From the sequence record OP312987.1: a stretch of 64,000 nucleotides of DNA. One strand, written 5' to 3'. This DNA is from Escherichia phage vB_EcoS_Uz-1. Of this stretch, positions 1 through 13,066 are shown in pieces; within the stretch, counting starts at the first letter, position 1; every line of letters begins with the position of its first letter. The notes beneath the pieces were generated by a model that was not told the origin of the DNA, ran no database searches, and saw only the letters and a list, made by a program, of their open reading frames with translations. A program made the position numbers and the translations under genes.

Positions 1-268
1 CGTTTTCTGAATCTTTGCAGAATTCCTCAATACTTTTCTTACGCAGAGTCTCGTTCATAGCTGTTTCTTCAGCTAATTTGTTTACGAATGTATGCATTTC
101 TAACTTAGTACGGATGGCTTGTTTCTCTGCCATAGTAGATACATATGAGTTAAGCATACCTACTGCTTTAGTAGCTGTGCCAAATGTATCTGCAACAGTA
201 GTAGCAGCTGAGTTAACAGTACCAAGTAAAGTTCCTGCGGTCATACGTACAGTAGCTTGAGTAGTCAT
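1..268 (-). CDS. hypothetical protein, 3' end truncated by window edge
   Basis: Minus-strand frame opens at ATG 268..266 with GGAG about 9 nt upstream and stays open to position 1; Thr/Ala-rich product (MTTQATVRMTAGTLLGTVNSAATT...). The plus ORF 15..260 is its antisense. Confidence 0.45.
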   Translation of the reverse strand, partial: MTTQATVRMTAGTLLGTVNSAATTVADTFGTATKAVGMLNSYVSTMAEKQAIRTKLEMHTFVNKLAEETAMNETLRKKSIEEFCKDSEN

Positions 269-469
269 GATGATAGCTCCAATAGTTGATGATAGGACGA
301 CATGTCCATAACATGCGGAGCATGTGTAACGTGTAAGGTGGGGTAGGGTAGTGGCTACAGGGTCAACATACCGGGGGGGCTAGTTGAGTGTAAGGGTGTA
401 GCCCCTGCCACACCACTACAGCCATACATAGCTATCACAATTTTGGTATGCAAAAATAATATAGCTATC

Positions 470-796
470 TCACTTATAAGCAGTTAAATAGGAGGAAATA
501 ACCAGTGAGGGGTTGTAGTCATGGTAATACCAATATGCGTCACTATGGGTAGTGTTTATAGGCATACCAATGTAATCAAATACCCATAAGCAGAAGTGGT
601 TTACTTCATGGATAAGTGTTGGTAAGGGTTCCTGAAAGATACCCATAAGAACCTTATTACCGGAGTAAGAAGTAAACCCTTTACAACCTTCTATGTCTGG
701 TTCATACCCTTTAAGTTTCTTGTACTTCTTAACGAAGGTATCCTGATCAAATACTACCTCTAACTGCACTGGGTAGGGAGATGTGTTTAGTTTCAT
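470..796 (-). CDS. small hypothetical protein, possible sixth member of the paralog array (HEVNH motif)
   Basis: ORF track 108 aa; start overlaps the upstream gene stop (ATGA); contains LIHEVNHF, loosely alignable to the HExxG core of neighbouring paralogs. Confidence 0.5.
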   Translation of the reverse strand: MKLNTSPYPVQLEVVFDQDTFVKKYKKLKGYEPDIEGCKGFTSYSGNKVLMGIFQEPLPTLIHEVNHFCLWVFDYIGMPINTTHSDAYWYYHDYNPSLVISSYLTAYK

Positions 797-1076
797 TGTC
801 TTTCCTTATAGATTGGGGTGTTATCCTCGAAGGATAGGATGTACTTGTCTGTATTGAGATGCCATGGACTGAATCTACCCTGCCAGGACATTGGTGTACC
901 TGGTTCAAGTAGATGTACTTCTGCTTTCTTATTGTGTAAGAAAAGCAATCCTTGTAGTTCATGCAAGGACTGTTCGTCTGGAACCAGGATAAGTATATCA
1001 GCATCTAGGTTAGCTACTTTTTATGGTGGGTGTATTCATCCCAAGGTATTTCTGAATAAATTTTACTGATAACCAT
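793..1076 (-). CDS. paralog-family small protein, frame-shifted in this assembly
   Basis: Hand translation: ATG 1076..1074 gives MVISKIYSEIPWDEYTHHKK then a stop; the adjacent frame continues ...LDADILILVPDEQSLHELQGLLFLHN...YKERQ with the family core motif. The frames join if the T5 run near 1018-1023 gains one base. Not in the ORF track. Confidence 0.4.
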
Positions 1077-1306
1077 TAGATGCTCTCGTCGCTAGATAAA
1101 TATGAGGTAGATGGGTAGAGGGTAATGAGTCTACCGGTTAGAGTAGTTACTACCATAGGTTCTGTAGTGGAGTAGATGTACACAACTATGTGCTCCGGTA
1201 TTTCTACGGAATCTTCTATCTTAATGAATTTGATAGGTTGCCCCAGCATTAAGCAAGTACCAATGAACACTTCTGCTTCTTCGCATTGTTCGTAGTACAT
1301 GGTCAT
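1076..1306 (-). CDS. paralog-family small protein
   Basis: ORF track 76 aa; core EQCEEAEVFIGTCLMLG matches the family motif; N-terminus may lie upstream in another frame. Confidence 0.5.
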   Translation of the reverse strand: MTMYYEQCEEAEVFIGTCLMLGQPIKFIKIEDSVEIPEHIVVYIYSTTEPMVVTTLTGRLITLYPSTSYLSSDESI

Positions 1307-1395
1307 AGGCGTGCTTATTCTAATCCAGTGAGATTTACCTACCCCAGATTAAGGGGACTGGTACTACGATAACTCAAACCATAGAAGCGCATAAC

Positions 1396-1710
1396 TTACT
1401 TCCTTACATAGTAGTAACGGTACTCCTCATCATCATGCCTACAATCCCATTGGTAGTCATCGGATACCATCATGAAAGGTAGAGCGTCTACGCACTTAAA
1501 GTTGGTATATACTGATGGAGGAATGATACATACAACTTTACGGTCATTGCCTGCTAAGAAGAGCTGACCCCTTACTTCATGATAATCCTCTAAGGTAGGA
1601 ACCAAGATTACATGCTGGGGGTTGCTATCTATGACTTCCTCTAAAGTAAAGTCTGTTGTGTACAAGGCTCCCCTTCTAACAAAACTAGGGACGGTCAGTA
1701 TGAATTTCAT
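1396..1710 (-). CDS. paralog-family small protein
   Basis: ORF track 1396..1785; likely start at the internal Met (MKFILTV...); core VILVPTLEDYHEVRGQLFLAGN. Confidence 0.5.
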   Translation of the reverse strand: MKFILTVPSFVRRGALYTTDFTLEEVIDSNPQHVILVPTLEDYHEVRGQLFLAGNDRKVVCIIPPSVYTNFKCVDALPFMMVSDDYQWDCRHDDEEYRYYYVRK

Positions 1711-2074
1711 GGTTGATTTTCCTTCCTTTAGGGATAGGTCTGAAGTAAATGGAAAGTGTTTTATTAAAGAGGTTATGTTCAACAATCATTTCCCAGTCAG
1801 GTACTTTATAGAACCTGACTCCTGGGAAGAACTGTTTGAAGTCTGCATAATCAGTAAGGTCATACACAACTGGTTCAGTAAGTATCACAGTATTGATTTG
1901 CAGGTTTGATAAGAAAAGAGAGCCAACTATCTCGTGGGATTCTTCACAGTCTGGTAGGAAGACTACTTGTTTAGGAGCTAGGAACTTACTTACCATCTCT
2001 GGTTCCCCAGGTAGATAGGGTTCCTGCTTACGAAGTACTCCGGTAATATCAATATCAAAAGCGTAGATGCTCAT
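1685..2074 (-). CDS. paralog-family small protein
   Basis: ORF track 129 aa; core VVFLPDCEESHEIVGSLFLSN clearly related to the 1396, 1076, 793 and 2274 genes. Confidence 0.55.
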   Translation of the reverse strand: MSIYAFDIDITGVLRKQEPYLPGEPEMVSKFLAPKQVVFLPDCEESHEIVGSLFLSNLQINTVILTEPVVYDLTDYADFKQFFPGVRFYKVPDWEMIVEHNLFNKTLSIYFRPIPKGRKINHEIHTDRP

Positions 2075-2273
2075 AATTGCATACCTCCAGAAAAAGAAAT
2101 GGGGTAGAGCCTCTCGACTCTACCCTTACCGTTTTCTATCACGGGTCAGTTCATCACCCTAGATACTTGTGTATCGTTAGCCTACCAGGTAGGAAAGGAG
2201 CCGGGTAACCCTGACTGTAGAAGTTATTAACTCTTTACGAGTACCGCCACTGTCTACTAGGCGGTATGACTAA

Positions 2274-2564
2274 TCACATCGTCACCATCATCCGAACACT
2301 GTCTTTACTTCGTTTGATGGAAACACTATGAGGTAATTTTGTGAAGAACACAAGAGCTGAAAGTCTCTTTTCTAAAGAGTAAGTTTCTCTTGGTTCTAAG
2401 ATCTTAATGCCCGGACGATTCTCTAATAGCATCATCCCAGCTAATTCATGGTAGGAATCTTCATCATGTGTAATGATAATATCATCTGAAAGAATACCAG
2501 CCTTGGTGTGGTCTAGCTCTTTGTATTCATCTTTAGAGTCTAGGACTCTCATATAGATTCTCAA
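2274..2564 (-). CDS. paralog-family small protein
   Basis: ORF track 96 aa; core IIITHDEDSYHELAGMMLLEN. Confidence 0.5.
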   Translation of the reverse strand: MRIYMRVLDSKDEYKELDHTKAGILSDDIIITHDEDSYHELAGMMLLENRPGIKILEPRETYSLEKRLSALVFFTKLPHSVSIKRSKDSVRMMVTM

Positions 2565-2733
2565 AGGTTACTCCTTTTGGGAATAGGGTCATCGGAACAT
2601 TACATACTATTTAGTATCATGAACTTTTTCTATATCATGACTAAAGTGTAACTGTATGGTATGGTTTCTTCAAGGGTAACTCACCCCAAGAAAGAATCTT
2701 CTTTAATAGACATAACTTTGTAGAGAGATAAGT

Positions 2734-3423
2734 ATGAGTGAGCTAACTAAGCAGCAGATTGTTAATGCCCTTCCTGCTAACTTCAAGAACAGTGTAACCC
2801 AGGAGTTGGTGGACACAATTAACAACATTACCCAAGACCAACTGGTTGCTGAAGCATTCCGTGAAAACTTCATCTCTTACTCTGGTGTTATGAAGGAAGG
2901 TAAGTTTAAGACACAGGACTACATGAATGCAGTTCAGTATGTGACTTATAAACACATGGGCTACTCAAATAAGGAAGCCTACTTCAAAACATTCCCTAAC
3001 CGACAAGCAGAACTTGTGGCACGAGGAACCAGTGAAAAAGATATTAGTGCTTATGTATCTGCTTATCACAGAGGTAAGTTAGTTAACCTCATCATGGAAC
3101 AAAGTTTGGTTCCAGTGTGGATTGTTAACCAGGACAATTATCAAAAGGCTATCAACGTTCAGGTTGAACTAATGACCACAGCAGCAAGTGAGAAGGTAAG
3201 ATGTGATGCAGCTAACTCTATCCTTACTCACTTGGCTAAACCAAAAGACCAGGTAACGAATATCAATCTGGACTTGAGAGAGAACTCTGGGTTGACTGAC
3301 CTCAAGGCAACACTTGCTGCATTAGCTGAACAGCAAATTAATGCAATCAATAGTGGAGTACCTACTAAAGAGATTGCTGGTTCTAAACTAGTACGTGCAG
3401 ATGAGGACATTACAGATGTCTGA
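2734..3423 (+). CDS. hypothetical protein, candidate small terminase subunit (by position only)
   Basis: 229-aa ORF immediately upstream of and overlapping the large terminase gene; no motif verified. Confidence 0.5.
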   Translation: MSELTKQQIVNALPANFKNSVTQELVDTINNITQDQLVAEAFRENFISYSGVMKEGKFKTQDYMNAVQYVTYKHMGYSNKEAYFKTFPNRQAELVARGTSEKDISAYVSAYHRGKLVNLIMEQSLVPVWIVNQDNYQKAINVQVELMTTAASEKVRCDAANSILTHLAKPKDQVTNINLDLRENSGLTDLKATLAALAEQQINAINSGVPTKEIAGSKLVRADEDITDV

Positions 3424-5005
3424 GTTAATTAAGCAGGAACTAGATGAATGGTTGGACCAGGTGGATTACTCCTACCTTAATTCATCCAACTATGTTCCTA
3501 GTCAGTTTGCCCTTACCTTTGCCAACTTTATTAAGTTGGTTAATGGCAAGGAAGGTGAATCCAACAAAACACCCCCAGTTCACTTAAAGATGCTGGATAA
3601 GATGATTAGTCCGAACCAGTATGTAGTTAACCTGTGCTTCCGTGGTGCAGGTAAGACTGCTGTGTTCATGGAATACTTTACTTTGTTCCTGGCAGTGTTT
3701 GGTCACTTACCCAGTCTTGGTAAAGTAGAAGGAATGATTTACGTATCCGATTCAATGGATAACGGTGCTAAGTCTGCACGTAAGAATATTGAGTTCCGAT
3801 ATAAGAACAGTGAGTTCCTTCAGCAGTGGATACCTGAAGCTACCTTTACGGATAACCTGTTAGAGTTCCGTAATGCAGAGGGACATAGACTGGGGGTTAA
3901 GTTGTTTGGTGCTAAGACAGGTCTTCGTGGTACGAAGATATATGGTAAACGTCCAACACTCTGTGTACTGGATGACTTGATTAGTGACAGTGATGCAAAC
4001 TCCAAGACAAGCATGGAGGCTATTAAAGATACTGTTTATAAAGGTGTGAACCATGCTCTTGACCCAACCCGTCGTAAAGTAATTTTCAATGGTACTCCCT
4101 TTAATAAGGAAGACATTATCATTGAAGCAGTTGAGTCTGGTGCATGGGATGTCAACGTATGGCCTGTATGTGAGAAGTTCCCTTGTAGCAGAGAAGAGTT
4201 TCAAGGTGCATGGGATGACCGTTTCTCATACGACTACATCAAAGCCCAATATGACATGGCAGTTAAGACAGGTAAGCTGGCTGGCTTCTATCAGGAACTT
4301 ATGCTTCGTATTAGTTCTGAAGATGAGAGACTGGTTCAGGATAGTGAAATTAAATGGTACAGCAGGCAGCAACTATTAAGGATGAAGTCCTGCTACAACT
4401 ATTATATTACAACTGACTTTGCTACTTCGGAGAAACAGACCAGTGACTACAGTGTCATATCAGTTTGGGCTTACAGTTCTAATGGAGATTGGTTCTGGGT
4501 TGATGGTGTGGCTAATCGTCAGCTTATGGATAAAAACTTTGATGACTTATTCCGTCTGGTTCAAGAATACCAACCACAAAACGTTGGGGTCGAGATCACG
4601 GGACAGCAGAATGGGTTTATCTCCCTTCTCCAGAAAGAAATGATTAACCGTAACGTCTTCTTTAACTTTGCATCTTCTGAGGGTGGTAAGCCAGGCATAC
4701 GTCCTGTAACCTCTAAGCTGTCACGATTTAACCTGGTAGTTCCATGGTTCAAAGCTGGTAAGATGTACTTTCCAGAAGAGTTGAGAGATACAACTATTAT
4801 GGGTCTGTTCATGGGCCAGCTTAAACTAGCTACCATTAATGGAATTAAAGGTAAGGATGACTGTATTGATACTATCTCCATGCTGGGTTATCTCAATCCT
4901 TGGAAACCACAAGCAGGCATGACTATGGTGGATAACAAGGGTGATCCGATGTGGGATGACGAAGAAGAAGATAGTGTTAACCCTCTACGTTCATACATTG
5001 TGTGA
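3416..5005 (+). CDS. terL: terminase large subunit
   Basis: About 530 aa with P-loop-like FRGAGKT near the N-terminus, upstream of tail and portal genes in N4-like order. Start chosen at ATG 3416 (GAGG 9 nt upstream, overlaps upstream stop); the ORF track begins at GTG 3395. Confidence 0.8.
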   Translation: MSELIKQELDEWLDQVDYSYLNSSNYVPSQFALTFANFIKLVNGKEGESNKTPPVHLKMLDKMISPNQYVVNLCFRGAGKTAVFMEYFTLFLAVFGHLPSLGKVEGMIYVSDSMDNGAKSARKNIEFRYKNSEFLQQWIPEATFTDNLLEFRNAEGHRLGVKLFGAKTGLRGTKIYGKRPTLCVLDDLISDSDANSKTSMEAIKDTVYKGVNHALDPTRRKVIFNGTPFNKEDIIIEAVESGAWDVNVWPVCEKFPCSREEFQGAWDDRFSYDYIKAQYDMAVKTGKLAGFYQELMLRISSEDERLVQDSEIKWYSRQQLLRMKSCYNYYITTDFATSEKQTSDYSVISVWAYSSNGDWFWVDGVANRQLMDKNFDDLFRLVQEYQPQNVGVEITGQQNGFISLLQKEMINRNVFFNFASSEGGKPGIRPVTSKLSRFNLVVPWFKAGKMYFPEELRDTTIMGLFMGQLKLATINGIKGKDDCIDTISMLGYLNPWKPQAGMTMVDNKGDPMWDDEEEDSVNPLRSYIV

Positions 5006-5011
5006 GGAACC

Positions 5012-5722
5012 ATGCAAAAATTATCAGAAGTATACCGTGGCTTGGCACTAAGTACCTTGAAGGGTACTGGTGCAATCACGGATGATAGATTAGGTATTGA
5101 ACCAGATAGTAAGCCTGAAATACTGGCAGCTATTAATGAAGGACTGGTTCGACTGCATAGTCGTTTCCCCCTTAGGACTAATAGCTGTATTGTGGAGATG
5201 AAGGAAGGACGTACTGATTATCCTCTTCAATCCAAGTATGCTTACTCCAGGTTTACTAAACCTACTCTTGAGATTCAGTATCCGTATATCATGGATGGGT
5301 TCATGAAGCCTTTCCAGGATGATGTTATTAAAATCTTAAATGTGTTTGATAACTCAGGTAACCGACGTAGATTGAACGATGATTCAGACCCCCGTGCTAT
5401 CTTCACCCCACGGCCTGATACTATTCAGTGTATGCGACCTCGACACTTCGAAGCACTTAACGTAACTTATCAGGCAAAGCACCCAGTACTTACGGGTGAT
5501 GAAGAACAGGAAGTTGATTTAGCTGATACGCTAATGACGGCACTTCATAACTGGGTGGGTTATCGTTACCACACTGGTTTGAATACCCCAGAAGCTAATG
5601 CTAAAGCAGCAGAGTATCTGCAAACGTATGAAAGCATCTGTGGTGAGGTTGTTGATTACGACCTGGCTAATGGAAGTATTTCAATTACCGAAACTAAATT
5701 TGAACAACGAGGATGGCGATGA
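5012..5722 (+). CDS. hypothetical virion protein
   Basis: 236-aa ORF with GAGGA upstream of ATG 5012, inside the late structural block. Confidence 0.6.
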   Translation: MQKLSEVYRGLALSTLKGTGAITDDRLGIEPDSKPEILAAINEGLVRLHSRFPLRTNSCIVEMKEGRTDYPLQSKYAYSRFTKPTLEIQYPYIMDGFMKPFQDDVIKILNVFDNSGNRRRLNDDSDPRAIFTPRPDTIQCMRPRHFEALNVTYQAKHPVLTGDEEQEVDLADTLMTALHNWVGYRYHTGLNTPEANAKAAEYLQTYESICGEVVDYDLANGSISITETKFEQRGWR

Positions 5723-7515
5723 ACTCACATACCCCCTTTGATGCAAATCAGGATTGGACCAATCCTTACTGTCATAACAGTTCCAATGACCCTATGGTAG
5801 ATGCACTGCTTGGTAATGCTTACCATGTGGTACGTACTGTCTACTGTAATTTAGGTAACCTCAAACTCATTTATGATTTCTTGAATAAATATGGAATGGT
5901 GCTTGGTGTACAGTCTGAAGCAGAACTTAAAGCATTAACTACTAAAGCTAAGTATGCACGTATCTACGGCTTCTCTCGTACAGGTGACCGTCAGGTAACT
6001 GACTACTTATACGTAGAGGGTGACCGTACAGGTATTTTACCCGATGACACTACTGCAACCGGTTCATGGATTACTGTTGCTACTTCTGGCTCTACTGGTG
6101 GTGGTGGTACTTCTTCCAGTGAAGGTGCTTATATTCCTTGGGTATACAGCAATGGTTCCGCTACTGGTGGTGAAACCACAATTAACGTACCTGACGGTAC
6201 TGTGGGTGTACCTTTTATCATTATTAATGGTGACATGCAGTATGTAGGGCGAGGCTTTGAGTTTAACGCAGATAACCTGTCCGTAACTCTGGCTCAGCCT
6301 CTGGAAGAGGGTGATGAAGTAGTATTCCTTCTGACTGGGGTTCCTGCTGTACCAGATAATCCTAACGTTAACGACTGGGTTCAGATTAATTGGTTATACA
6401 ACAATGGTGCTGCTGTAGGAGGTGAGCAGGTTATTGCTATCCCTTATACCTTCCAGTCTATTCCTGCCGTGTATAAGAATGGACTTCGTTTGTATAAAGG
6501 ATTAACTACTGAGTCCTATACTGCTGACCCGGATAGCCAACGTATACTTCTTACTGAACCACTGACAACCAATGACCGGTTGATTGTGCAAATTGGTGGG
6601 GAAGCACAGGTACTGGAAGCATCAGACCATACTCTTCAGGAAGTTGCTCGTGCTGCTAATGTTAAAGATAGTGAAGTAATCCTTAGTACTGATACTTCTC
6701 AGATACTTAATGGTAAAAAGGTAATTTTTGATGTAGCTACCCAACACTGCTATGCCTTACCTACTTTGCCCAGTAATGTTTATATTACGTCTGTTAATGA
6801 AGGTCAGTTAACATTTTCCCCGGGTAATATAACAGTTGATTTGTTACCACTGGTTGACTCAAAGGAAAACATTGTTGCTGTGGTTAAGGATATCTATTCA
6901 CAGTCAACTGGTTCGGTATCCGTTGGGCATGGTTCAAGAACTGTTGCTGACAATCTAGATGATATCAAGCATTCAGCTAACTACCCTGATTTACAAGCTG
7001 CAATTGACGCTACAAATCCACGTGATGATCTGCTCATTACAGCAGGTACATACCCAGGTGGGTATACTTCAGGTAATGCAAACCTAATCGGTGTAGGTTA
7101 TGGTGTCAATTTTACCCCGGGTATTGGTAAAACTTCTCTTACACTTTCCGAGTCTTCTCGTTTATGGCAATACCGCCATGCGGAAAACTTTCTAATAACT
7201 GGGTCAGTAGATGTACCACAGGGCATCGGCATTACTTTTGGTGGTTCGCCTACACCGAACCTGGATGGGCGTTGGAATTTTAAACACATTGCATTTGACG
7301 GGCTTGACATTGGTGTATTTAAACCTAAAGGGAATATTGGTAATACATACCAACACTGCAGCTATTTAGGGTGTAATTACGGGCATAAAACTGAGTCAGA
7401 TCCAAATATGCACGTGGGGCTGATACATGGAGGGATTGCCATTTTGCAGGCATCAATACTTATGGTATTTACCTTAACGGTTCTGTTGGTGGCCCTGCTC
7501 CAGGTGGTGGTCTAG
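5713..7515 (+). CDS. tail fiber / tailspike-like protein (N-terminal part)
   Basis: 600-aa ORF, Gly/Thr/Ser-rich with an internal tandem repeat of an NG..GGE module; the last ~25 residues are hydrophobic and look out of frame. Confidence 0.65.
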   Translation: MAMNSHTPFDANQDWTNPYCHNSSNDPMVDALLGNAYHVVRTVYCNLGNLKLIYDFLNKYGMVLGVQSEAELKALTTKAKYARIYGFSRTGDRQVTDYLYVEGDRTGILPDDTTATGSWITVATSGSTGGGGTSSSEGAYIPWVYSNGSATGGETTINVPDGTVGVPFIIINGDMQYVGRGFEFNADNLSVTLAQPLEEGDEVVFLLTGVPAVPDNPNVNDWVQINWLYNNGAAVGGEQVIAIPYTFQSIPAVYKNGLRLYKGLTTESYTADPDSQRILLTEPLTTNDRLIVQIGGEAQVLEASDHTLQEVARAANVKDSEVILSTDTSQILNGKKVIFDVATQHCYALPTLPSNVYITSVNEGQLTFSPGNITVDLLPLVDSKENIVAVVKDIYSQSTGSVSVGHGSRTVADNLDDIKHSANYPDLQAAIDATNPRDDLLITAGTYPGGYTSGNANLIGVGYGVNFTPGIGKTSLTLSESSRLWQYRHAENFLITGSVDVPQGIGITFGGSPTPNLDGRWNFKHIAFDGLDIGVFKPKGNIGNTYQHCSYLGCNYGHKTESDPNMHVGLIHGGIAILQASILMVFTLTVLLVALLQVVV

Positions 7516-7520
7516 ATGGA

Positions 7521-8435
7521 TTGGCAATTCGTGATTGCATCATGGAGGCAAGCCCAGGTGGTGGCATTTATTTTAAAGGCAATGGATTAGCTCCTGTAGT
7601 ACCACCTACCATCAGCAATGTATGGTTCGAATTGGTAGCCACTGCAGACACAGTAACTGTTGACGGAGTTCCGCAAGCACCTAGACAGTTGAAACTAGAA
7701 AACGTTCCGGTAACTGTTGCAGAGGGATGCTATTTTAACAATATTGAGTTAATAAACTCTACTCTAGTGGCGAAAAACTGCAGGTTTGATAATGCGTCCG
7801 GTGTGTATGACATTAATGTCAATTCCGGTAGTCAAATCATTGCACATGACCTGATTGTTGGTGGCTCTGTTGGGCCAAAGGTTTTTGTAGAATCTGTATC
7901 GGATGTGTCATTCCCTGTTGCTAATAGTCTGGATTTATCCTTAAGAGGAACCTGTCTGAAAGGACGAATTAAGAGGCTTTCCAATGGTCAGGCAATGCTA
8001 TCTGAATCTTTCGCTGGTGCAGGTCCATGGCAGTTCCTGGGTACTTCTACTGTTGATGCAACTTCCGTAACGGATGGTGTATTGTCAGACACTTGCGGTC
8101 AAATAGTAGTACCAGCAGGAGCTACAGTAATGCTAAATGTACCCGCTAGTTTGGCTCAGTACTACACCCTAGTTTGGGGAGCAAGCCTGAAATTGGTATC
8201 CGGCGATGTAACAGCAACTCTATCGGATAGTATTAATATAGGTAGCTTGTATACCAGTACTGGTGAATGGGTGCACACCTTTGGGGTTGGGCAGTTAGGT
8301 ACTGCTGGTACAGTTAAACTAACCTTTTCCTCCGTGGCAGGTTGCGTTTTACGTATGAGTGATGTGTTTGTTGCTCAGTTTGCTAACAAGTATGATGCAT
8401 ATAATTTTGCTAACTCTCGTATGTCTATTGGCTAA
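7521..8435 (+). CDS. tail fiber / tailspike-like protein (probable C-terminal continuation of 5713 gene)
   Basis: ORF track start is TTG with no SD; this frame is open back to 7395 and reads protein-like sequence (GINTYGIYLNGSVGGPAPGGG...). Confidence 0.5.
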   Translation: MAIRDCIMEASPGGGIYFKGNGLAPVVPPTISNVWFELVATADTVTVDGVPQAPRQLKLENVPVTVAEGCYFNNIELINSTLVAKNCRFDNASGVYDINVNSGSQIIAHDLIVGGSVGPKVFVESVSDVSFPVANSLDLSLRGTCLKGRIKRLSNGQAMLSESFAGAGPWQFLGTSTVDATSVTDGVLSDTCGQIVVPAGATVMLNVPASLAQYYTLVWGASLKLVSGDVTATLSDSINIGSLYTSTGEWVHTFGVGQLGTAGTVKLTFSSVAGCVLRMSDVFVAQFANKYDAYNFANSRMSIG

Positions 8436-8483
8436 ACAGACTGCCTTCGGGGCAGTTCCTTATAGAAAAACAATGAGGTTTAT

Positions 8484-10598
8484 ATGAACGAAATGTTCTC
8501 ACAAGGCGGTAAAGGCTCTACTGGTATTCTTACCAATAAGCAAGCCATTGCCCGTAAGTTTGGTGTTAAGCAGAATGAAGTAGTCTATTTTTCTGTAGGT
8601 GTAGACTTGGGTGGATACAAAGTCATTTATGATAAGACTACTCAACGCGCTTACTCATTGCCCGTACTTCCAGTAGGAACCACTGCTGTAAGTCTTAGTG
8701 AACATGCAGTCTTGGTTCATTCGGCAGGTACAGTTGATTTGGGTGAACTGGCTGCTGCACGTAGAGAGTTTGTATGCTTATCTGATTCATTTACTACGGG
8801 CTTAGTAGTAAATACTCGAAATGAGCTTTTGATGCATAATGGTATTGGTTATACCTACTTAGGTTCTCTACCCGTAACTATTGTTGAAGGGGCCAACCCT
8901 GTTGGCAACACGGATTGGAAGTCCCAAACGGATCCTAATTTGCGTGCTCAGTTGGCATCTCAGGATGGTATGACTTTAATTGGTAGTGTACCCGACGTAA
9001 CTGCCCTGGCTTCTGTTGGAGCAACAGTAGGGTCTAGTATAATGCTAGATTCGTACTCAGGCTCTTCCGTTGGTGGGGGTATTATGATTGCGGTTCCTAA
9101 TACTACTCCTGTAGATGAAGTTGTAACTTTCACCGGTGCAGGAGTGGTCTGGAAGCGTAAGTTCTTTGATGGCACTGCTACGGTATACGATGCAGGTTAT
9201 ACTGGTACGGGGGATATTGCCCCATTCATTAACAAGGTAAACTCTGCCGGTTACGATTGTCTTGTACCTACATCAGGGACTATTAGTACACCTATCTTAC
9301 TGGATGTAGCTAAGGGGGCTTTAGTAGGAGCCAATAAGTGTACCCTTACGGAAATGGAAGGTGTAACAGGAGAGTATTATTTAACCGTAATCAATTCTAA
9401 TACAGATTACACAGCCCGTGATGCCATTAATGCTACTGCCCTATTAACAGGTATTTCCTTTGTAGGTAAAGGTACTCGAAAGATGTGCTTGGGCAGTAGT
9501 ACTGGAGGGGAGATAGCAGAATTACGTATATCTAACTGCGGGTTTATATCTACCGCAGGTATTGAGTTTAAAGATAATGCATACCGTATCCTGTTTGATA
9601 AGTGCACCATTTCTCGCAGTTTTACTAACTCTGTAATCTTTAATTCCCCGGTTAATGCTGGTGAGGTTATAAAATTCAACCACTGCTGGATGGTTGATAA
9701 TGGGGGTCCATTTACATTTGAGAATGGGCAGTTCATCTTTGATTCATGCTCATTACCAGCAGGTAAAAAGGCAGGCTACTTCGATCCAGTAGTGGCATTA
9801 AGTGATAATGCTACCTTAGTATTTGCTAACGGTAATATTGAGTATCAACCCGGGCAGAGTTTTGTAGGCTTTACTGTGAGTGGAAGCTCACGCCTCAGTA
9901 TTAAAGATTCTACTATTCTGCTTCCAGAAGGCTACAGTACAGTGCCTATTGTTAGTAATGGTGATGGGGTAGTTAGTTTAAATAACTGCTCATTGCCCCT
10001 CTACGGTAACACAACGATTGCTACTGGATTTGCTACAAGACAGTTGATAGGCGGTGCAAGTAAAAAAGTAATGTCCAGAGGGTGCTTCCCTCGTGCAGGA
10101 TTTATTACAACTAACTGGAATCTAGGGAGCATTGTAAGCCCATATATTAATAGTATTAGCAATGGCTCAGGACAGTTTGGAAATACATCTAACTGGACAC
10201 TCTCGCAAACTGGAACAGGTGCTGTCACTGCTACTACAGCAAATGATGTTCCTAACGATTTAATGTTTACAACTTCTTTTGTTTTATCTGTACCATCAGC
10301 AGATGCAGCAGCTAACTTCACTCAAACAATCATTGATTGTGAACCGGGTCGTTATTTTCAGTTTGGTTTTTGGGCTAAAAATACAACAACCACCTTGGCG
10401 TCAATTAGATTCCTGGACCAGCAAGGAAATGCTGTTGCGGATTCCATAGGATATATCATTCCAGTAGTAAACACGTTCAACTTTTACGCTTTGGTGGATT
10501 GCGTTCCTCCAGGAGCTTACAAAGCTGAAATTAATTTTAATGTTTCTTCAGTTGTTGGAGGCGTCGTAATACACAATGCAGTTTATGGATTGATTTAA
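8484..10598 (+). CDS. tailspike / receptor-binding-like protein
   Basis: 704-aa ORF, ATG 8484 with GAGG upstream; N-terminal ~45 aa share a motif (..TQ..Y.LP.LP) with an internal segment of the 5713 gene; beta-rich, Gly/Thr/Asn-rich. Confidence 0.7.
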   Translation: MNEMFSQGGKGSTGILTNKQAIARKFGVKQNEVVYFSVGVDLGGYKVIYDKTTQRAYSLPVLPVGTTAVSLSEHAVLVHSAGTVDLGELAAARREFVCLSDSFTTGLVVNTRNELLMHNGIGYTYLGSLPVTIVEGANPVGNTDWKSQTDPNLRAQLASQDGMTLIGSVPDVTALASVGATVGSSIMLDSYSGSSVGGGIMIAVPNTTPVDEVVTFTGAGVVWKRKFFDGTATVYDAGYTGTGDIAPFINKVNSAGYDCLVPTSGTISTPILLDVAKGALVGANKCTLTEMEGVTGEYYLTVINSNTDYTARDAINATALLTGISFVGKGTRKMCLGSSTGGEIAELRISNCGFISTAGIEFKDNAYRILFDKCTISRSFTNSVIFNSPVNAGEVIKFNHCWMVDNGGPFTFENGQFIFDSCSLPAGKKAGYFDPVVALSDNATLVFANGNIEYQPGQSFVGFTVSGSSRLSIKDSTILLPEGYSTVPIVSNGDGVVSLNNCSLPLYGNTTIATGFATRQLIGGASKKVMSRGCFPRAGFITTNWNLGSIVSPYINSISNGSGQFGNTSNWTLSQTGTGAVTATTANDVPNDLMFTTSFVLSVPSADAAANFTQTIIDCEPGRYFQFGFWAKNTTTTLASIRFLDQQGNAVADSIGYIIPVVNTFNFYALVDCVPPGAYKAEINFNVSSVVGGVVIHNAVYGLI

Positions 10599-10603
10599 TT
10601 AAA

Positions 10604-10628
10604 ACTAAGGCCCAAACTGGGCCTTTTC
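10604..10628. terminator. bidirectional intrinsic terminator between convergent genes
   Basis: Hairpin GGCCCAAACTGGGCC with T-rich flanks on both strands, between the stop of 8484..10598 (+) and the stop of 10629..11282 (-). Confidence 0.6.
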
Positions 10629-11282
10629 TTATATAGAGTTTACTGTTTGCATTACCTCAACCGATACTGCTGTTAGGGTAATTACTTGCCCGGATAAGTT
10701 AAACATACCCAACTGAATACCATCTACCATGAAAGGGTCAGATGAACCAAGTGTGTAAGTAGCTAGTACGTTATCCCTATTAGCTATGTCCGTACCCTGT
10801 ACCTTAACACTAGTGTCTGAACCAACTACTGTAGTTCCATTGGTTCGTCTTGTTTGTGTTCTCCATTCTCTTGCTGTACCAGCACCTCCTGTAATAGTTC
10901 CTGATATACGTACACTGAACATTACCTGGGTATTCCTGGTTCTAATAGGGAATTTAAGATTACCTCCTTCAATTGTTAATGCTGCTGTACCCCCAGGTGA
11001 TTTAGTTATCCATGGTAATGAAAAGTAATTGAGCCAGGACTGGTCATTTACTACCTGGCTCCCGGTCCATGTATACAAGTCCAGAAGGAAAGTATCTTCT
11101 AACTCTGTTGGTGGGATGGGTAGTAGTTCAGGGGGAAGCTCTGAAACGTTATTAGCAGAAACTATTCGTTCCCCATAGCTTCCCACGACCAACAAACCAC
11201 CCTTCATTTTGCACACAACATCCTTACCACTTTGGAAAATATCTTTAATAGACATAGATACCTCGTAGTTGATACCAGACAC
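10629..11282 (-). CDS. hypothetical protein encoded opposite to the late operon
   Basis: 217-aa minus-strand ORF inside the plus-strand late module, bounded by the bidirectional terminator and a ~100 bp AT-rich upstream region. Confidence 0.6.
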   Translation of the reverse strand: MSGINYEVSMSIKDIFQSGKDVVCKMKGGLLVVGSYGERIVSANNVSELPPELLPIPPTELEDTFLLDLYTWTGSQVVNDQSWLNYFSLPWITKSPGGTAALTIEGGNLKFPIRTRNTQVMFSVRISGTITGGAGTAREWRTQTRRTNGTTVVGSDTSVKVQGTDIANRDNVLATYTLGSSDPFMVDGIQLGMFNLSGQVITLTAVSVEVMQTVNSI

Positions 11283-11379
11283 TATGTCTGGATGTACTCC
11301 ATCATACTAAGTATTATCTAAGAGTCATCTTATGATACGACCCTATTGGGGTTTCTAACTTTACAACTACGGTAATATT

Positions 11380-11709
11380 ATGAATGAATCGGGTGAACTG
11401 CTCCTAGTCAGACTGGAGGAACGATTGAAGACTCTGTTTGAGAACCATACAAGGGAAAGGCAGGACCGTGAGAAACTGGAGGAAACTCTGGTGGAACTAC
11501 GGGATTCAATCAATGACATAGGCAATAGACTGAAAAATGTGGAAGAGAGCATCACTAAGTCTGAACCCACCATTGAAGAGTTCATCACCATTAAACATAA
11601 GGTTGCTGGTGCTGGGATTTTTGGTAAGTGGGTATGGGCTGGAGCAGGTGCAATTATTGGTGTATTGGCTGCTGCAAGACGGGAGATATTCGCATGGTTC
11701 GCAGGCTAA
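11380..11709 (+). CDS. membrane protein with coiled-coil N-terminus and C-terminal TM anchor (holin/antiholin candidate)
   Basis: 109 aa; charged coiled-coil-like N-terminal half, C-terminal hydrophobic stretch GIFGKWVWAGAGAIIGVLAAA; sits at the head of the lysis cassette. Confidence 0.5.
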   Translation: MNESGELLLVRLEERLKTLFENHTRERQDREKLEETLVELRDSINDIGNRLKNVEESITKSEPTIEEFITIKHKVAGAGIFGKWVWAGAGAIIGVLAAARREIFAWFAG

Positions 11710-11954
11710 AAAGAAAAGTAGAGTTAGTACCTAACTGGAAAAGATGCTGGAAGTGGGCATCCATTCAGATTAGTACATTTGGGTTAATTATGTTTTCTGC
11801 TATAGATATCATTCAACCAATGCTGACAGGATTACCCCGTCACATCCTAGAAGACATTCCCCATGGTTCAAATATTGCAATCGCACTCTTTGCCTTAAAC
11901 ATCATAGGCAGATTAATACGATTCCGACCAAAGGAAGATTCACATGAAAGCTAA
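11694..11954 (+). CDS. putative holin (two predicted TM segments)
   Basis: In-frame ATG 11694 inside ORF 11628..11954; product MVRRLKRK... has two hydrophobic segments; directly upstream of and overlapping the endolysin gene. Confidence 0.5.
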   Translation: MVRRLKRKVELVPNWKRCWKWASIQISTFGLIMFSAIDIIQPMLTGLPRHILEDIPHGSNIAIALFALNIIGRLIRFRPKEDSHES

Positions 11955-12579
11955 ACAGAAACTTGCTGCTAAAGGTGGTGCAGTGGGAGGAGTTGTCGCT
12001 GCTATCCTGGGGGCAGTGTTCTATATGGAAGGGGGATATGTAAATAATCCCCGTGACCCAGGTGGGGAAACTAATCATGGTATTACCCAATCGGTAGCTA
12101 AGACTCATAAAGAAGTTCTGGCTACTGAGTACGGTTGGGATGGTTCTATGAAGGGTTTATCTAAAGAGATGGCTGCTGAGATATACATTGATGACTACGT
12201 ACTCAAACCTAACTTCGTAGCCTTCGCTGATATATCCCCTGCTGTAACACATAAGCTGGTAGATGCTGGTGTTAACACTGGTGTAACCCGTCCGGCTAAG
12301 TGGTTACAGTTATCTCTTAATGAAATGTCCCGTGATGGCAAAGACTACCCTAAAATACAGGTTGATGGTAAAGTCGGTACAAGTACTGTTAATGCATATA
12401 AAGCATTACAGAAAAAACGAGGCAAAGTTGCAGCATGTCAGGTAATGATTAAGCTGCTTGATGCTAAACAACTGAACCACTATACCTCATTAAACATGCC
12501 AGACTTTACGTATGGTTGGGTAGCTAACCGAATTGGCAATGTGCCACTGGAGGCATGTAATGAAGATGCTAATCTCTAA
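11944..12579 (+). CDS. endolysin, GH108-type N-acetylmuramidase with N-terminal signal-anchor
   Basis: N-terminal hydrophobic GGAVGGVVAAILGAVF followed by the GH108 signature EGGYVNNPRDPGGETNHGIT and a C-terminal peptidoglycan-binding-like region; GGAAG SD before ATG. Confidence 0.85.
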   Translation: MKAKQKLAAKGGAVGGVVAAILGAVFYMEGGYVNNPRDPGGETNHGITQSVAKTHKEVLATEYGWDGSMKGLSKEMAAEIYIDDYVLKPNFVAFADISPAVTHKLVDAGVNTGVTRPAKWLQLSLNEMSRDGKDYPKIQVDGKVGTSTVNAYKALQKKRGKVAACQVMIKLLDAKQLNHYTSLNMPDFTYGWVANRIGNVPLEACNEDANL

Positions 12580-13066
12580 AGGTTGGCCTTATCTTCTGGT
12601 GGTGGTCCTTGGGGCCACCATTTACTTTTGGGGTAATTCCAATGGACAGTCTACTGTTCAAAAGAAGTGGGATGCCCAAAAGGTTGAAGACCAGAAGGCA
12701 ACGCAAAAACTACAGGATAAATACAATGCTCTCCAAAGAAACCATAGTTATGAAGTCGGGTTACTTACTTCCCGGTTGCAGACGGCTGAGAGTAATTACG
12801 CAAGTGAGCTTGCTCGCGTTAGCAGTGATTACGACAGCCGGATGCAACAGTCTGAAAGACGAGCATCGGTATATAAACGTCAAGCCGAAGCCGGAACCCT
12901 TGAGTGCAGAAGTCTTGCAAGCCATGCAGCCAGACTCGACAACAGTCTTGAAGAAGGCAGACGTTTGGTTGAAGAACTCCGGGCAACTGTTAGACTCCGT
13001 GACAACCAACTAATTGAGTTGGGTAAACAAATTCAGGCTGACCGTAAACTTTTTGAACAGGAATAA
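12560..13066 (+). CDS. i-spanin (Rz-like)
   Basis: Start at ATG 12560 (GGAGG 6 nt upstream; ORF track begins 12533); N-terminal [27 protein letters not shown] then long coiled-coil-like region; overlaps the endolysin 3' end. Confidence 0.7.
12750..13013 (+). CDS. o-spanin (Rz1-like lipoprotein) embedded in the i-spanin gene
   Basis: Alternate frame wholly inside 12560..13066; ATG 12750 gives [32 protein letters not shown] with a lipobox (TAGC) and Pro-rich mature part. Confidence 0.65.
   Translation: MKSGYLLPGCRRLRVITQVSLLALAVITTAGCNSLKDEHRYINVKPKPEPLSAEVLQAMQPDSTTVLKKADVWLKNSGQLLDSVTTN

Follow-up and report, generated by a model that had tools for sequence, protein, structure and literature searches.

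The two tailspikes of phage G7C, gp66 and gp63.1, are reportedly joined in a branched complex, described by Prokhorov et al. in 2017. According to two reports, the secondary spike gp63.1 makes no contact with the virion, and its head binds the XD3 domain of gp66 in a 1:1 complex (PMC6872550; PMC8825819); the latter, on G7C deletion mutants, states that gp63.1 needs this domain (PMC8825819). The primary spike gp66 is described as attached to the virion by residues 1–134, with canonical head and receptor-binding domains coming after the first 294 residues (PMC6517402). In the solved structures of D1 (also TD1), a head subdomain of such spikes, the trimer axis is occupied by a three-helix bundle, made by the N-terminal helix, with a small beta structure packed round it, and D1 of TSP1 and TSP3 contains a metal site, the ligand being a His in TSP1 and Asn24 in TSP3 (PMC6517402). 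D1 is N-terminal in TSP1 and TSP3 and internal in TSP2 and TSP4, and TSP2 has D1 only (PMC8825819; PMC7506556), with a 12-residue neck right behind it (PMC7506556).

The window analysed here, a stretch of 64,000 nucleotides from Escherichia phage vB_EcoS_Uz-1 (OP312987.1), is that of a Bp4-like Gamaleyavirus, i.e. an N4/G7C-like podovirus, with 98.8–100% identity to phage Bp4. Its genes are ordered as in G7C: terminase, gp67-like adaptor, a gp66-like gene starting at position 5713 (gpA) and a gp63.1-like gene starting at 8484 (gpB). The original prediction was that a module of about 45 residues is shared by these two proteins, internally in gpA and at the N-terminus in gpB. Considering the observed homology, fold, domain order and mosaic breakpoints, we regard it as highly probable that this module is the D1 head subdomain known from the superfamily of G7C/CBA120-type tailspikes, and that its double occurrence is explained by an anchored, branched gpA paired with gpB, the locus encoding the branched adsorption apparatus with two spikes that is standard in Gamaleyaviruses.

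The two segments first aligned were found exactly, at residues 308–353 of gpA (nucleotides 6634–6771) and 19–63 of gpB (8538–8672), and BLASTP confirmed that the module is common to both spikes (gpA 308–390 against gpB 19–99: 31/83 identities, 37%, E 3e-8). It should be noted that the similarity extends further than the 45 residues, the shared module being about 85 residues long. The Smith-Waterman score of the pair, 102, is far above that of shuffled segments (26.0 ± 4.5; z = 16.7), none of 2000 of which scored as high; shuffles of the whole of gpB gave 50.8 ± 6.9 (z = 7.5), and 0 of 300 reached 102. The objection that the alignment might be no better than that of shuffled sequences therefore falls away. 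Profiles built from 65 internal-type and 70 N-terminal-type modules, none of them from the window, were aligned by HHalign with a probability of 98.5% (E 1.6e-15), and PHROG families behaved likewise, those with an N-terminal module matching gpA 309–402 and those with an internal module (at about 347–498) matching gpB 21–167. Pfam recognised no family in either spike, and the module has no Pfam model; a word-indexed homologue search with the 101-residue gpA module alone found none, the query being too short for the index. Homologues of the module were surveyed by exhaustive HMM search, and the spikes were identified by PHROGs, PDB sequence search and Foldseek.

As to its fold, the module was compared with the solved D1 domains of TSP1 and TSP3 (residues 13–96), TSP2 (169–244) and gp63.1. 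In the PDB sequence search, gpA 300–390 aligned to about residues 170–254 of TSP2 (6w4q), and gpB 1–100 to 4oj5, 4qnl, 9d84_A and 6nw9; the gpB head was assigned by sequence, with E values of 5e-57 to 9e-44 against solved heads. For the gpA copy the structure prediction that had been suggested was carried out, and the AlphaFold model of residues 294–396, a monomer of moderate confidence (pLDDT 74.5), has the D1 fold, with a helix at 6–21 (segment numbering), six strands and the neck helix. Foldseek returned 18 significant matches to this model, every one a D1 domain, from TSP2, TSP4, TSP1, TSP3, G7C gp63.1 and B2 Gp48; TM scores against solved D1 domains were 0.60–0.72, and the rmsd to D1 of TSP4, TSP1, gp63.1 and TSP3 was 1.6–1.7 Å over 75 residues. 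The metal-ligand position of TSP1 and TSP3 is aligned with a Lys in gpB and an Ala in gpA.

The gene for gpA, the gp66-type primary (anchor-branch) tailspike, occupies positions 5713–8435 of the + strand, on which all the features given here lie, and encodes 907 residues once one G is restored. Its residues 1–135 (5713–6117) are the tail (particle) anchor domain, matched in the PDB to the N-termini of Moo19 gp82 and B2 Gp49 (9d80, 9d83) and representing the only part of gpA common to N4 gp66 (9lc0, residues 1–73). Two T4 gp10-like domains follow, namely the branching domain XD2 at residues 140–210 (6130–6342), which matches TSP4-N (7rej, 228–335) and TSP2 (6w4q, from residue 18), and XD3 at residues 222–296 (6376–6600), placed by homology; the two constitute an internal repeat (E 2e-11), and together with the anchor they are supported by the matches to 9d80, 9d83, 7rej, 7xy1 and 6w4q. 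Next come the subtype II D1 head at residues 300–385 (6610–6867), located by sequence and by the AlphaFold model and with no D2 after it, and a predicted neck helix at residues 384–395 (6862–6897; helix 91–102 of the model), which joins head to body. Residues 1–383 of gpA match Moo19 gp82 and B2 Gp49, and gpA 140–390 matches residues 18–254 (XD2-XD3-D1) of CBA120 TSP2. The protein is a composite, in which an adaptor (anchor, XD2, XD3) precedes a tailspike of canonical build (D1, neck, beta-helix body).

The gpA reading frame is broken. A GGGG run at 7412–7415 is one G shorter than in phage PD38, so that the frame shifts and the 600-residue ORF starting at 5713 ends in about 33 out-of-frame residues; the product of the 5713 gene is not a 600-residue protein. 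The missing G splits one 907-residue gene into the ORFs 5713–7515 and 7521–8435, which are spanned, in order, by PHROG 27367; PD38 has an intact gpA gene of 905 residues with 4 amino acid differences, and P0008 is 97% identical to gpA across the break. For annotation, the two ORFs should be treated as a single gp66-type tailspike gene with a frameshift. It is quite unlikely that the shorter run is a genuine allele, and not a sequencing error, that reduces gpA to an adaptor (anchor, XD2, XD3, D1) and is switched by slippage. Were it so, slippage in the G run would turn the receptor-binding body of the primary spike off and on while gpB was still presented, the truncated gpA would resemble the natural 375-residue ECBP1 and 410-residue B2 gp49 forms, and D1 would always be kept at the ends of adaptors because the branching domains require it for capping and trimerisation.

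It had also been proposed that the frame starting at 5713 fuses two originally separate genes. It is no recent or artefactual fusion; in the sequence analysed here the frame is itself split by a one-nucleotide deletion. In the evolutionary sense, however, a fusion of adaptor and tailspike is supported by the spike genes of relatives, in which the two parts are separate or differently joined: ECBP1 has an adaptor of 375 residues, B2 has gp49 (410 residues) and gp48, Moo19 has a single gp82, and in CBA120 TSP4 a gpB-type body sits behind XD domains.

Between the two spike genes, a stem-loop with a 6-bp stem (ACTGCC-TTCGG-GGCAGT) was read directly from the sequence at 8440–8456; its PD38 counterpart has one extra C, and an inverted-repeat scan of the gpA–gpB intergenic region at default length gave no match. 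In G7C-like phages a terminator-like stem-loop is conserved at the same intergenic position (bioRxiv 10.1101/542787).

The gpB gene (8484–10598), immediately downstream, encodes a gp63.1-type secondary tailspike of 704 residues, recognised by its PDB sequence matches, which has a D1-D2 head and no anchor. Residues 1–96 (8484–8771) comprise a conserved leader and a subtype I D1, match the solved N-termini of TSP1, gp63.1, B2 Gp48 and TSP3, and include the GTTAVSL motif (PMC8432352). Residues 97–168 (8772–8987) correspond, by homology to TSP1 and TSP3, to the D2 head subdomain (97–154) and the neck helix (155–168) (PMC6517402), and the matches to the four solved heads extend over gpB 1–173. The beta-helix body, i.e. 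the receptor-binding/enzymatic part (8988–10595), is homologous to that of CBA120 TSP4, gpB 20–704 matching TSP4 (5w6h) from its internal D1 on (E = 0). Bodies of this type are reported to be specific for E. coli O78 (PMC8825819; PMC8432352), and phage EC1-UPM, whose host is O78:K80, carries the gpB gene at 97%; by analogy gpB may have the same specificity, and the gene is best annotated as that of a secondary tailspike of the TSP4-like type, which is reported as O78-specific.

Neck and body follow directly on D1 in both proteins, D1 itself being N-terminal in gpB and preceded by gp10-like XD domains in gpA. We propose that gpA would act as the primary spike, in which the anchor (residues 1–135), XD2 and XD3 precede a D1, a neck and a beta-helix body of its own, and gpB as the secondary spike, whose D1-D2 head would plug onto the XD3 trimer of gpA and not onto the virion. 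The module is thus internal in gpA and N-terminal in gpB because in the primary spike a complete tailspike is joined to an adaptor (anchor-XD2-XD3). Head and body together form a unit that is exchanged horizontally. Docking of the gpB head on gpA XD3, the putative docking site, is to be expected from the G7C complex, and D1 of gpA and gpB presumably trimerises as in the solved heads. Docking in cis of the D1 of gpA onto its orphan XD2 site was also considered, and judged unlikely because the XD3–D1 linker has only about 6–10 residues. D1 is retained even in the adaptor-only orthologues of ECBP1 and B2 (gp49), a retention for which a pure role as the start of a spike body does not fully account.

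The exhaustive HMM search gave 345 matches to the module among 1.84 billion representative proteins, and in the best 150 of these it starts at discrete positions: about 11 (78 proteins), about 172 (12, TSP2-like), about 297 (56, gp66-like) and beyond 320 (12, TSP4-like). Modules of subtype II (LSTDT...) lie inside their proteins in nearly all cases, and those of subtype I (YFSVG...YKVIYDK) nearly always at the N-terminus; each subtype is conserved across podoviruses and Ackermannviridae. Among 12 Gamaleyaviruses, the gp66 homologues are conserved to about residues 378–404, the end of D1, the gp63.1 homologues to about 160–180, the end of D2, and beyond these points they are unrelated.

That every gp66 homologue diverges right behind D1 would suit the idea that D1 inside gpA serves chiefly as a recombination joint, a conserved site for the homologous exchange of receptor-binding bodies, with little structural role. 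Consistent with this, D1 of CBA120 TSP4 has a hybrid character: the helix part agrees at 11–14/19 positions with subtype II and 6–7/19 with subtype I, and the remainder at 42–43/57 with subtype I and 17–21/56 with subtype II. The body of gpA recurs at 97% identity in a TSP2-type protein (P0008), and a motif for recombination in TD1 has been proposed earlier (PMC8432352). However, the D1 fold is conserved, solved homologues having a trimer-axis helix and a metal site (PMC6517402), the adaptor-only proteins of ECBP1 and B2 keep it with no body to swap, and the two subtypes are too dissimilar in DNA sequence to recombine by homology. We therefore consider a mere joint highly unlikely; recombination at D1 complements the D1-head explanation and does not replace it. 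In practice, the D1 boundary (at about residue 385 of gpA and 160 of gpB) is a natural graft point for host-range engineering in this phage group.

The original prediction further saw in the module a common virion-attachment domain swapped between receptor-binding proteins. The module is indeed shared and exchanged, but the anchor is gpA 1–135. The notion that both spikes bind the tail through the module can draw on the historical name of the N-terminal region of TSP1/gp63.1-type spikes, the 'head-binding' domain, and on the module being better conserved than the rest of either protein. Yet in gpA it lies at residues 300–390, downstream of the real anchor, to which it has no similarity by BLASTP; the G7C papers cited above place gp63.1 on gp66 XD3 and not on the particle, to which gp66 is attached by residues 1–134 (PMC6872550; PMC8825819; PMC6517402), and TSP2 and TSP4 carry D1 behind assembly domains (PMC8825819; PMC7506556). 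As the gpB head is expected, from G7C, on gpA XD3, a common virion-attachment domain is very improbable.

It is hardly credible, and ruled out by the DNA comparison, that one spike gene recently copied the start of the other by duplication or gene conversion, since the copies, although they lie on one strand at a distance of 1.9 kb, have a codon-aligned identity of only 49%, with a longest exact match of 12 nt, and fall in two old and widely conserved subtypes, II and I. The two spike genes contain no DNA-level repeat, and their modules are ancient paralogous subtypes and not a recent swap inside the genome.

The D1 head in an anchored and branched spike pair, which we prefer, makes this an ordinary finding, because the domain, both its positions and its branched-spike role have already been published for G7C, CBA120, B2 and Moo19; it has little value as a discovery, and its practical value lies in the annotation of spike genes and in engineering boundaries. 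The closest system is the gp66/gp63.1 complex of G7C (PDB 4QNL), of the same genus and with the same gene order. Residues 3–378 of gpA (anchor, XD2, XD3 and D1) are 76% identical to gp66 1–375, and the gp63.1 head shares 50% identity with gpB 1–220, whereas the receptor-binding bodies are unrelated, gp63.1 having an SGNH esterase where gpB has a TSP4-like beta-helix, and the body of gpA being unlike that of gp66. In the Gamaleyavirus ECBP1, the locus is the same and gpB is 98% identical, but the gpA homologue, of only 375 residues, stops right behind D1 (295–372), a natural adaptor-only form. TSP1–4 of the Kuttervirus CBA120 (PDB 4OJ5, 6W4Q, 6NW9, 5W6H, 7REJ) have the same D1 fold, N-terminal or internal; the TSP2 region aligned to gpA has D1 only, without D2, and TSP4 is aligned to gpB from D1 to the C-terminus. 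However, CBA120 belongs to the myoviruses, has four spikes and differs in its baseplate anchor, and the TSP4 body, which it carries on an anchored primary spike, is found here on the free secondary spike. In the Shigella phages B2 and Moo19 (Sci Adv 2024; PDB 9D80–9D84), gpA 16–381 aligns to the adaptor-only Gp49 of B2 (410 residues, ending after D1), the gpB head aligns to B2 Gp48, and gpA 1–383 aligns to Moo19 gp82. Adaptor and enzyme are two proteins in B2, and in Moo19 the adaptor is fused directly to an esterase body; unlike either, Bp4-type phages combine a primary spike of the fused kind with a secondary spike that is free.

The similarity between the two tailspikes gpA (product of the 5713 gene, a gp66-type primary tailspike, 5713–8435, plus strand) and gpB (a gp63.1-type secondary tailspike of 704 aa, 8484–10598, plus strand) is genuine and well beyond chance. 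The original prediction of a module of about 45 aa, internal in gpA and N-terminal in gpB, was borne out: the strings it quoted lie at gpA residues 308–353 (nt 6634–6771) and gpB residues 19–63 (nt 8538–8672), BLASTP aligned gpA 309–390 with gpB 20–99 (37% identity, E 3e-8), and HHalign comparison of 65 internal-type with 70 N-terminal-type modules, taken from other organisms, gave a probability of 98.5% (E 1.6e-15). In the shuffling check it had proposed, the Smith-Waterman score of 102 exceeded that of every shuffle (shuffled segments 26.0 ± 4.5, z = 16.7, 0/2000 reaching 102), and shuffling of the whole protein gave z = 7.5 (0/300). The codon-aligned DNA identity between the two copies is only 49%.

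The module is the D1 (TD1) head subdomain of about 85 residues. A PDB sequence search matched gpA 1–383 to Moo19 gp82 (9d80), 16–381 to B2 Gp49 (9d83), 140–390 to residues 18–254 of TSP2 (6w4q) of phage CBA120, 102–211 to the XD3 domain of TSP4-N (7rej) and 3–79 to N4 gp66 (9lc0). In the same search, gpB 1–173 matched the heads of CBA120 TSP1 (4oj5), G7C gp63.1 (4qnl), B2 Gp48 (9d84) and TSP3 (6nw9), and gpB 20–704 matched TSP4-deltaN (5w6h, E = 0), the chain of which starts at the internal D1 of TSP4. In TSP1 and TSP3, D1 (13–96) is followed by D2 (97–154) and a neck (155–168); TSP2 has D1 only (169–244), preceded by XD2-XD3, and TSP4 is arranged as AD-XD1-XD2-XD3, then D1-D2 (PMC6517402, PMC7506556, PMC8825819). 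The D1 fold of TSP2 is the same as in TSP1, TSP3, TSP4 and gp63.1 (PMC7506556). From its N-terminus, gpA comprises an anchor (aa 1–135), the T4 gp10-like branching domains XD2 (140–210) and XD3 (222–296), which are an internal repeat of one another (E 2e-11), D1 (300–385), a neck (384–395) and a beta-helix body through aa 907, and gpB a conserved leader MNEMFSQGGKGSTGILTNKQ with D1 (1–96), D2 (97–154), a neck and a TSP4-like body.

Structure prediction for the gpA copy agreed with this assignment. The AlphaFold model of residues 294–396 (pLDDT 74.5) consists of a helix, six strands and a C-terminal helix, and its 18 significant Foldseek matches, led by TSP2 (E 1e-11), were all D1 domains; the next match had E ~0.9. 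TSP4, TSP1, Gp48, gp63.1 and TSP3 superpose on the model with an rmsd of 1.6–1.7 Å over ~75 residues. At E <= 0.01, Pfam-A assigned no family to either tailspike (5713–8435, 8484–10598), and therefore the XD and D1/D2 domains of a widespread family are missed by Pfam-based annotation.

After the large terminase, the annotation lists a gp67-like adaptor of 236 aa (Pfam SU10_adaptor), the 5713 gene, the 7521 ORF and the 8484 gene; a minus-strand ORF comes next, followed by lysis genes and the portal. The adsorption locus of G7C, gp67-gp66-gp63.1, is arranged in the same way. Positions 5000–11300 align full length, with equal coordinates, to Escherichia phage Bp4, a Gamaleyavirus (Schitoviridae, N4/G7C-like). 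Over 9.3 kb aligned with Bp4 and its near-twin PD38 there are only two indels, one G short in the G run at 7412–7415 and one C absent at 8443. In PD38 the tail fibre gene is annotated as a single 905-aa ORF; putting the G back gives a gpA of 907 aa, differing from PD38 at 4 residues; P0008, a representative protein with 97% identity to gpA, spans the junction intact; and PHROG 27367 covers gpA 298–566 with profile positions 127–397 and the 7521 ORF with positions 433–735. Hence 5713–7515 and 7521–8435 are one gp66-type gene, broken rather than fused, and the final ~33 residues of the 600-aa ORF are out of frame. The shortened G run may represent a real truncation of gpA; however, both indels are homopolymer-length differences, and this points to sequencing error.

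Across the 5,642 bp of 5902–11543, identity with the Bp4 record is 100%, frameshift included; this block takes in gpB and the greater part of gpA, together with the minus-strand ORF and the beginning of the 11380 gene. The flanks 3500–5901 and 11544–12800 diverge from Bp4 by 6.9% and 5.3%, without indels and mostly at third codon positions (ts/tv 171/61), and the identity over 1–5700 is only 91.8%. This pattern suggests a mosaic genome related to Bp4 and carrying an identical two-spike cassette, the left breakpoint of which lies near gpA codon 63. Between the spike genes, the terminator-like stem-loop ACTGCC TTCGG GGCAGT (8440–8456), which in PD38 has one C more (7-bp stem, TTCG loop), corresponds to a conserved one proposed as a recombination landmark by the G7C group (bioRxiv 10.1101/542787). 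A perfect 8-bp hairpin (10607–10625) separates gpB from the convergent 217-aa ORF (10629–11282, minus strand; PHROG 17779, function unknown). Where this ORF has its counterpart, some related records (UE-M3, UE-S5b) carry the label 'tail needle knob', others 'hypothetical'.

Among 12 Gamaleyaviruses, the gp66 homologues are 59–88% identical as far as residue ~378–404 (the D1 end) and the gp63.1 homologues conserved as far as ~160–180 (the D2 end), both being unrelated beyond; this pattern of conserved N-terminal and swapped C-terminal parts was described earlier by the G7C group. When 1.84 billion representative proteins were searched exhaustively with an HMM, 345 carried the module, and in the best 150 of these it starts at discrete positions: ~11 (78 proteins), ~172 (12), ~297 (56) and >320 (12). 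By tblastn it occurs in 330–497 phage genomes, often in 2–3 copies, including Gamaleyavirus, Kuttervirus and other Ackermannviridae of Salmonella, Klebsiella and Dickeya. Subtype I (…AIARKFGVKQNEVVYFSVG…YKVIYDK…GTTAVSL) is nearly always N-terminal and followed by D2; subtype II (…EVARAANVKDSEVILSTDT…) is nearly always internal, without D2. The D1 of CBA120 TSP4 (L014, 3315–6425, aa 344–426) is a hybrid, with a gp66/TSP2-like helix and a TSP1/gp63.1-like beta part: in TSP4-type domains the helix part shares 11–14/19 residues with subtype II vs 6–7/19 with subtype I, and the remainder 42–43/57 with subtype I vs 17–21/56 with subtype II. This make-up indicates that a crossover once happened within D1, directly behind the conserved ...VK..EV motif. 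In addition, the protein P0094 has an internal D1 in which a trace of the free-spike leader (…GILANKQA…) survives, ECBP1 (375 aa) and B2 gp49 (410 aa) are natural adaptor-only forms, and Moo19 gp82 is a directly fused one. Taken together, these observations support a composite, adaptor-plus-spike make-up of gp66-type proteins. The earlier suggestion that the 5713 frame fuses two fibre genes is supported for the protein type; the frame itself is one broken gene, and adaptor-spike joining is old and recurrent across the family, not peculiar to vB_EcoS_Uz-1.

The module had also been proposed as a common virion-attachment domain, which the analogy with G7C makes very unlikely: gpA would hold the tail via its N-terminal anchor, and gpB would be bound by gpA, not by the virion. 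For gp63.1 of G7C to bind, gp66 must have XD3 but can lack XD2, and the two proteins form a 1:1 complex (PMC6872550, PMC8825819). The module thus opens a 'complete tailspike' unit: in gpB this unit is free and its head would be the docking plug, and in gpA it is covalently joined behind the branching adaptor. Cleavage of the O78 O-antigen has been reported for CBA120 TSP4, as has a receptor in common with three G7C-like phages (PMC8825819, PMC8432352). The gpB of EC1-UPM, the isolation host of which is O78:K80, is 97% identical to the gpB studied here.

Overall, the observation is confirmed and its earlier interpretation partly supported, the only small additions being the subtype and position statistics and the hybrid helix of the TSP4-type D1. 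The shared module amounts to a correct rediscovery: every element of the architecture has been published, from D1/TD1 in both placements, the gp10-like branching domains and the gp66/gp63.1 complex to the TSP4-like spikes that G7C-like phages carry and the swapping of receptor-binding modules at TD1 (motif GTTAVSL; PMC8432352).
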